Virus record (IMG/VR): IMGVR_UViG_3300029305_000349 | Coordinates: 4,246-68,245 of that record | Direction: 5' to 3' (one strand) | DNA length: 64,000 bases | Source of the DNA: a virus | Part shown: in pieces, positions 42,045 to 42,250 of the stretch | Numbering within the stretch: the first letter of the stretch is position 1 | Layout of the letters: each line of letters opens with the position of its first letter | Program-made: the position numbers and the translations under genes | Notes under the pieces: model-generated | Seen by the model: the letters and a program-made list of their open reading frames with translations, nothing else | What the model was told of the DNA's origin: nothing | Database searches by the model: none

Positions 42045-42250
42045 GAGAGAAAGAACTGAAACAACAGAAGCGTTTTATAGGAAACTATATCATGATGTAA
42101 CGCAATAACTCGGAACTTATAGTTCTAGGCAGGGATGTCTATAGAGAGGAACCGGAGGTGAGAAACGGAAACGGAGATGTAGCAAACGGCGAACTAGTGG
42201 TGATACACTATGCTACATGATGGTTGTTAAGTTTCTTAACTCTCTTATTT
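42045..42250 (+). ncRNA. multi-branched structured RNA (~200 nt)
   Basis: Promoter motif at 42019, no RBS-led ORF; 5'/3' closing stem and several internal hairpins. Confidence 0.6.

Follow-up and report, generated by a model that had tools for sequence, protein, structure and literature searches.

A candidate end-clamped noncoding RNA cassette of an Oengus-like gut phage

The locus and its phage

The DNA analyzed here (the window, 64,000 nucleotides in full) spans bases 4246–68245 of a 68,245-bp IMG/VR virus record that carries direct terminal repeats, and its GC content is 41.8%. Judged by the DUF6353 protein encoded next to the candidate RNA described below, the nearest named relatives of the phage are MT835485, an unannotated human-faecal phage scaffold (52% amino acid identity), and Faecalibacterium phage FP_oengus (35%), the latter assigned, in the account given by 10.1101/842583, to a supercluster whose members, phages of Firmicutes and actinobacteria, have a YonO-like RNA polymerase in common. 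An ORF of 997 aa, ending at 4243 of the record and therefore just 5′ of window position 1, gives a weak match to an RdRP family (PF05183, 19.7 bits, under the cut-off), a check to which Bacillus subtilis was the sole control genome to respond; it probably encodes a YonO-like phage RNA polymerase, and it directly precedes an anti-Shine-Dalgarno hairpin, a tRNA-Met, and the late genes. Within one late gene, at 22762–23439, a unit of ~189 bp stands four times in tandem, the copies being 60–77% alike (repeat family D2).

The candidate RNA (Table 1) occupies the window's largest plus-strand gap devoid of ORFs of at least 45 aa (41973–42391), in a window that is 93% covered. As the original prediction had stated for 42045–42250, no ORF led by a ribosome-binding site (RBS) is found there, the plus strand being free of any ORF of 30 aa or more. 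Because a terminator-like site of the upstream gene (41979–42007) comes before it, the cassette is set apart from upstream transcription. The assertion that the RNA is expressed from its own cassette promoter holds as far as the promoter is real as a repeat, with a copy at 42021–42047; the transcript itself is a putative one. The pattern CGC-N15-YWTWATGAG occurs 12 times in the window against 0.05 expected, each time on the plus strand, and an RBS and ORF follow 10 of these 12 copies, the exceptions being those at 42021 and 42260. These two, which precede the candidate RNA and a neighboring tRNA mimic, are 83% identical over 47 nt, more alike than either is to any of the remaining copies. The TTCGCG element lies too near the −10-like hexamer (14-nt spacer) to serve as a sigma-70 −35 box; the candidate 5′ end of the RNA is 42045, or ~42050 should the promoter be sigma-70-like.

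Table 1. Features of the candidate RNA cassette and its surroundings, in window coordinates
Feature	Position	Strand	Remarks
Intrinsic terminator (hairpin and GTTCTTGGTG tail) serving the 58-aa gene upstream	41979..42017	+	Terminator-like site 41979–42007, 13 pairs
Cassette promoter copy: TTCGCG (42019–42024), TG (42036–42037), −10-like TTTAAT (42039–42044), then GAG	42017..42047	+	Repeat family D1/D4
Candidate RNA, ~200 nt; opens with the leader GAGAGAAAGAAC, closes with the U-run TTATTTTT (42245–42252)	42045..42252	+	Fold; GAGAGA leader; no Rfam match
P1, 5′ strand (42045–42049, 42051–42057, 42060–42065)	42045..42065	+	Partners 42223–42228, 42230–42237, 42240–42244
P2 hairpin: GCGUU/AACGC around UAUAG-GAAA-CUAUA, internal loop UCAUGAUGU; motif AUAGGAA and ATGATGTAA (42092–42100)	42070..42103	+	Pair probabilities 0.62–0.79
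P3 (GGAACU-UAU-AGUUCU) and P4 (AGGCA-GGGA-UGUCU)	42112..42140	+	Pair probabilities 0.37–0.64 (P3), 0.83–0.91 (P4)
Purine-rich linker; Shine-Dalgarno-like GAGAGG (42144–42149), GGAGGTGA (42154–42161); GTG at 42158 opens a 20-codon frame	42141..42176	+	Pair probabilities ≤0.24
P6 hairpin: AUGUAGCA/UGCUACAU, inner UAGUG/CACUA	42177..42218	+	Pair probabilities 0.92–0.98
Next cassette: promoter copy and anticodon-less tRNA mimic (42285–42358), into the DUF6353 gene 42383–43177	42256..42358	+	Weak tRNA-Sec-like match 42288–42355, 29.7 bits

Three DUF6353 (PF19880) paralogues stand in a row at 42383–43177, 43417–44178, and 45358–46296 (E 1e-72 to 1e-83), as they do in FP_oengus. An RNA cassette always precedes the first of them, and in many relatives the slot before DUF6353 is taken by tRNA-like cassettes. 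In this hyperplastic interval, the genes from the phrog_17256 homologue to DUF6353 stand in one order in the window and in another in L162 (IMGVR_UViG_3300045988_051512), a related locus syntenic with the window.

Natural variants of the stretch are found in public faecal and gut DNA runs, of which X7 and X8 yield contigs identical to it. The 13 runs listed include no RNA run, and the pieces from X13 are short and lie outside the RNA. A 287-nt contig from run X10 (~93% identity) carries 20 differences, and the 18 listed are all at or before 42042; 13 of the listed ones fall in the promoter spacer, between 42015 and 42042, and leave TTCGCG, TGCT, and the −10 pattern (here TATTAT) in place. Replacement of a spacer around kept promoter elements would fit both a swap of promoters and a promoter that works. 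None of the listed differences touches the RNA's first 76 nt, a constancy that is no proof of selection because the neighboring gene differs by just ~2–4%.

Predicted fold of the RNA

All of the helices initially proposed appear in the minimum-energy fold of the plus strand, of which CCG/CGG is weak (pair probability 0.23–0.24). Two GNRA loops (GAAA and GGGA) are present in the predicted fold as had been proposed, and the linker between P4 and P6 is indeed rich in purines and mostly unpaired. The closing stem P1 comprises 18 pairs in three segments (GAGAG/CUCUC, AAGAACU/AG-UUCUU, and AACAAC/GUUGUU), with pair probabilities of 0.23–0.93.

The whole fold has a minimum free energy of −48.8 kcal/mol (z −2.33), equalled by 3 of 200 shuffles. 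It is 12.9 kcal/mol better than that of the minus strand, whose z-score is −1.77. Control windows of 200 nt from the same phage reach z ≤ −2.3 in 10 of 63 cases, and the thermodynamic signal predicted for the whole fold exceeds chance to a modest degree. The firm part of the fold is the long-range closing stem P1, which goes beyond chance: stripped of the constant GAGAG/CUCUC, its cassette-specific part (RNA positions 6–23 and 177–195) forms a duplex of −10.3 kcal/mol, a value that 24 of 2000 shuffles and 1 of 650 genomic 19-mers attain. Since P1 is bulged, a rule that demands ungapped 7-bp pairing missed it. A K-turn or C/D-box was considered for AUGAUGU and rejected, the partner strand being devoid of GA by eye.

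An orphan sequence with one recurring hairpin

The class of the RNA had not been recognized at the outset, and an Infernal-type check against Rfam returned no family match for it either. At the gathering score, Rfam 15 matches the tRNA-Met at 4691–4765 alone in the whole window. With E values up to 10 allowed on the 471-nt stretch 41950–42420, the RNA is free of matches save for the tail of a 12.7-bit match to tsr1, whose gathering score is 235.

The collection of homologues that had been proposed as a check yielded a divided result: full-length relatives are found in none of ~95 related loci, 55 whole related records, IMG/VR, JGI metagenomes, and GTDB, and P2 recurs in one phage. A distant blastn search with 41700–42450 against 50,697 phage records returned nothing, BLAST and nhmmer against 12 related loci returned no useful homologue of the RNA, and the best BLAST hit in five whole related records has an E value of 0.29. 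Three exact patterns drawn from the RNA have 0, 0, and 0 matches in IMG/VR, and a 20-mer of the RNA has three in the JGI metagenomes, with likeness to the RNA limited to 20–23 bases. The P6 stem pattern hits 117 stretches in IMG/VR because it is its own reverse complement; 80 of them were scored with R1, a covariance model built from the single candidate sequence, and none reached E ≤ 1. In the window, R1 finds itself alone. Across 92 loci, FP_oengus and L162 (both with filters off), 80 DUF6353-anchored loci, and 50 whole records, it finds just fragments the size of the terminal stem or of P2. An antisense target within the phage was also rejected, the best candidate being 15 nt with one mismatch (E 2.4).

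P2 is thus the sole part of the RNA with a homologue. Its pattern has a single match in IMG/VR, at 33835–33866 of G003 (IMGVR_UViG_3300045988_070764), where 32 bases align with 26 identities at a local-alignment score of 34, against a best of 28 in 300 shuffles. Of the 10 pairs, 8 are kept, one of them by compensation (U-A to A-U), figures that come from two sequences only and are equalled by 246 of 500 shuffles. The P2-like stretch of 32 nt sits in a 266-nt noncoding cassette, G003a, which proved to be an orphan itself and so offered no stepping stone to further homologues. In the GTDB genomes, the P2 pattern matches once, at 2679–2728 of a Corynebacterium MAG (JAUMTW010000002.1, L242), within a UlaA-type PTS permease gene. 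There, a 24-nt stretch is near-identical to the inner part of P2, and a perfect 8-bp inverted repeat falls exactly at the positions of the outer stem. The match is read as chance within a coding sequence, given that 596 Gb should contain about one match to 20 fixed bases, and was discarded as a homologue, strange though the placement of the inverted repeat is.

A class of GAGAGA-clamped cassettes

The promoter repeat allows noncoding cassettes to be surveyed beyond the window. A scan of 80 DUF6353-anchored loci (out of more than 231 DUF6353-bearing IMG/VR contigs), together with five related genomes and the window itself, gathered 576 distinct promoter copies, with an RBS-led ORF within 70 nt in 452 and absent in 124. 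Under a rule with a 20-aa ORF limit and a gap of 70–400 nt, the noncoding cassettes consist of 38 distinct tRNA-like cassettes and 78 others, a count made with a crude RBS/ORF rule that also picks up false positives within genes. Clustering by sequence sorts the 78 into 56 groups, most with a single member and some of them such false positives; ~25 have the look of real structured RNAs, small ones of 80–270 nt.

These cassettes have a signature at their start. GAGAGA opens 45 of 139 noncoding cassettes and 4 of 433 coding ones (Fisher 4e-26), and the exact 12-mer GAGAGAAAGAAC occurs in three cassettes only, all three noncoding. Homology among these three was considered and rejected, their alignment being limited to the ends. 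One of them, cassette 4421 of L162 (~235 nt), has the same first 12 and last 15 bases as the window RNA around an unrelated interior. Pairing of the leader with the 3′ end before a U-run is seen in cassettes of the class, the ungapped 7-bp rule for it being loose (65 of 124 noncoding and 107 of 452 coding cassettes pass). In 24 curated sister RNAs, the mean fold z-score is −2.64 against a phage background of −0.77, and the top-enriched 7-mer is ATAGGAA (6 against 0.2 expected, in a set curated by eye after the motif was noticed), which may be a weak ribosome-binding site.

Other members of the phage group offer further examples. The first 8000 bases of L162 hold seven promoter-driven noncoding cassettes (at 123, 295, 2889, 3003, 4421, 5870, and 7455). 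FP_oengus (NC_047916.1) has a promoter-driven cassette of ~120 nt at 2490–2640 and a tRNA-like cassette at 2910–3010, where RefSeq annotates no RNA. In two distant relatives, another structured RNA lies directly 5′ of DUF6353 (L181:5866–5957 and L228:5879–5965), and its hairpins appear compensatory by eye (GTATC/GATAC vs. GAATC/GATTC; CTTGGAG/CTCCAGG vs. CTGTAG/CTACAG).

The window RNA has the boundaries of this class. The repeat CGCG-N15-YWTWATGAG precedes it, the GAGAGAAAGAAC leader gives it a GAGAGA start with no RBS-led ORF within 70 nt, and that leader pairs through P1 with the 3′ end right before TTATTTTT. It is plausible, from these boundaries and from an interior found nowhere else, that the window RNA is an orphan member of a class of clamped noncoding cassettes. 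The class of GAGAGA-clamped cassettes is defined here and is not a published family; the main texts of the two FP_oengus papers and literature searches contain no description of these promoters or RNAs, and we regard the class as previously undescribed.

Gene remnant, leader, or RNA

The layout of P2 admits another reading, in which the cassette would be a decayed or chimeric small-gene unit, once composed of promoter, RBS, an ORF of ~43 codons, and terminator. Its present state, in which it could still be transcribed into an RNA that itself has no role, would stem from weakening of the Shine-Dalgarno sequence together with a TAA at codon 3, or from a recombination patchwork between the repeated promoters and terminators. 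We consider this possible, if on the whole doubtful, and it is a serious rival chiefly because of the start-region layout and the frame that opens at 42092. P2 runs from AUAGGAAA through 7 nt to AUGAUG and at once UAA, a layout like that of genuine translation starts in this phage, and has the look of a start codon behind a weakened ribosome-binding site; its counterpart in G003 aligns with a true RBS and gene start in the sibling phage G055. From the ATGATG at 42092, the frame meets TAA and is then open for 39 more codons, making 43 codons with a single stop that end at 42220, just 5′ of the closing strand and U-run, and the 45 nt that separate ATGATG from the promoter come near the distance in coding cassettes (11–40 nt). 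The orphan status of the RNA, the rearranged interval, the promoter swap in X10, and a fold z-score unexceptional for the genome (the 10 of 63 controls) all suit decay as well. However, the leader is of the noncoding type (only 4 of 433 coding cassettes open with GAGAGA), the stem that closes the RNA is specific, an open stretch of 40 codons arises by chance in about 1 of 10 such regions (an estimate from base composition), and translated similarity to the relatives' proteins is absent, the best tblastx E value of the stretch against ~95 related loci being 0.17. The recurrence of ATAGGAA in 6 of the 24 otherwise unrelated cassette RNAs likewise counts against independent decay, which would not yield it.

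The tRNA mimic next door poses a different question. The RNA and the mimic are tied by adjacency and sister promoters, and by nothing more. The two had been thought to form a pair, a suggestion that finds no support on either reading of the word: relatives keep the mimic and DUF6353, with 38 distinct tRNA-like cassettes among them and none with a homologue of the RNA, and base-pairing between the two gives no signal (65 of 500 shuffles equal it). Pairing of the RNA with the anti-Shine-Dalgarno hairpin at 4576–4685 was rejected as well (255 of 500 shuffles equal). The RNA resembles the tRNA mimics of this phage group in promoter type, in genomic interval, and in a GAGAGAA leader whose pairing partner is the 3′ end ahead of a U-run. 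In contrast, its body has no T-loop or tRNA match and is ~2.5 times longer, and the mimics are conserved in dozens of phages whereas the RNA is not.

A cis-acting role would tie the two cassettes together through transcription. Polymerase starting at 42045 would pass a weak terminator and continue into the genes for the mimic and DUF6353, and the leader would act on its own transcript through processive antitermination, Shine-Dalgarno-like stabilization, or cleavage that releases it at the tRNA-like unit. Such a leader would be well placed, directly 5′ of the mimic and the three DUF6353 paralogues and on their strand; the RNA contains Shine-Dalgarno-like sequences, and a simple terminator scan does not call its end as a terminator. 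Yet a full promoter copy stands between RNA and mimic, relatives keep the mimic and DUF6353 where they have no such RNA, and the P1 stem with TTATTTTT is laid out like the ends of the sister cassettes, which together make a cis-acting leader improbable.

A hidden micro-gene is very improbable: the 20-residue peptide from the GTG at 42158 (MRNGNGDVANGELVVIHYAT), with GAGAGG 8 nt 5′ of it, or another tiny ORF in a stem-clamped RNA, has in its favor this frame and spacing, its capture by the 20-aa ORF rule, and the 12-mer GAGGTGAGAAAC that also opens a 26-codon frame in cassette G003b, but the two peptides are alike in their first three residues only, the sharing of the 12-mer is not significant (5 of 300 shuffles), the GTG sits within GGAGGTG, and the window peptide is without homologue among relatives and, by eye, without membrane or signal character. 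G003b itself is a clamped noncoding cassette of 137 nt (L153, in G003, 7206–7385) that contains ATAGGAA and GAGGTGAGAAAC in the reverse of their order in the window RNA.

Relation to known systems

A close parallel is offered by the PeSL (promoter-early stem-loop) cassettes of T4-type phages, in which, as presented in Arbiol et al. (2010; PMC2839356), repeated promoter–terminator modules drive modular shuffling. Here too, a repeated early promoter (12 copies) adjoins a stem-loop terminator in a hyperplastic region of small accessory genes, and the repeats are candidate sites of shuffling: L162 has other cassettes and another gene order between the same anchors, and the promoter spacer of X10 is swapped. 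Such an arrangement would account for both the orphan status of the RNA and its varying neighbor. PeSLs as portrayed in that source differ in being regulatory DNA that flanks protein genes, whereas a noncoding body of 200 nt is enclosed here, and in that the terminator stem at the present locus would be built with the extreme 5′ end of its transcript; host phylum and phage group are not those of PeSLs either.

Several RNA families are comparable in part. The large ornate RNAs GOLLD and ROOL (~580–800 nt) belong to phages and prophages and often lie beside tRNA genes; like them, the window RNA is a phage-borne, multi-helix noncoding RNA beside a tRNA-like gene, but it is far shorter at ~200 nt, forms no conserved family, and shows no match to them in Rfam at E values up to 10 on the 471 nt. 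Y RNAs, which bind Ro60/Rsr, also join their 5′ and 3′ ends in a long terminal stem, and the window RNA has such a stem beside a tRNA-like module in a phage. Its sequence, in contrast, is that of the phage's own GAGAGA leader, and a Ro60/Y RNA system was rejected on finding no TROVE domain (PF05731) in the 68-kb phage record and no Y RNA match in Rfam. Sponges of the CsrB/RsmZ type carry many GGA motifs in loops and linkers. The hairpin loop of P4 (CA-GGGA-UG) likewise displays GGA, and seven GGA occur in the RNA in all; this is, however, no enrichment (4.8 expected, P 0.16, with 16% of 5000 shuffles reaching 7), the phage itself has no CsrA gene, Rfam gives no match, and a Csr/Rsm-type sponge was set aside.

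Proposed role and meaning

Taken together, the best explanation of 42045–42250 is that this Oengus-like gut phage carries there, within its hyperplastic early region, a noncoding transcription unit that is self-contained. That a functional RNA is made from it is a tentative proposition, for which nearly as much can be said as against. RNA polymerase would start at or just after GAGAG (~42045–42051), and the 3′ strand of P1 would pair back with the emerging leader and, together with the U-run, end transcription. The product would be an RNA of ~200 nt clamped at both ends and hence shielded from exonucleases, presenting between them four predicted hairpins, of which two are capped by GNRA loops, along with a linker rich in purines that contains a perfect Shine-Dalgarno look-alike, GGAGGUGA.

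Among the functions initially offered (decoy, scaffold, or ribozyme), nothing was found that points to a ribozyme. Hypervariable self-contained early phage genes are usually tools of host takeover or counter-defense. A decoy or sponge, that is, a trans-acting RNA that holds a host or phage factor, is the likeliest of the roles considered, yet rather improbable as a specific mechanism, and its two grounds are analogy and location among fast-changing early accessory cassettes. An abundant early RNA of this kind would bind and hold its factor in trans, the candidate partners being the 30S subunit or an RNA-binding protein, and it would be one of a fast-changing repertoire that includes the tRNA mimics.

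A wider scheme, improbable as a whole yet worth stating, may be drawn for the Oengus-like phages as a "handle-tagged cargo RNA" system. Swappable early structured RNAs, namely the tRNA mimics and at least two dozen other folds, the window RNA among them, would have a common GAGAGA/UCUCU terminal helix that acts as terminator and at the same time as a docking handle, through which a single protein partner is bound or a single fate (stabilization, packaging, or delivery) assigned, and their variable bodies, several with an exposed AUAGGAA, would each trap a different host factor or defense sensor.

If it is functional, the RNA is part of a highly diverse and so far undescribed array of small RNAs, deployed early, in common gut phages of humans and animals that include the relatives of Oengus. 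RNA cassettes with a common terminal clamp would then, if this reading is true, be a new place in which to seek RNA decoys. The value of the window RNA is mainly that of a pointer, which exposed the class and its GAGAGA signature.
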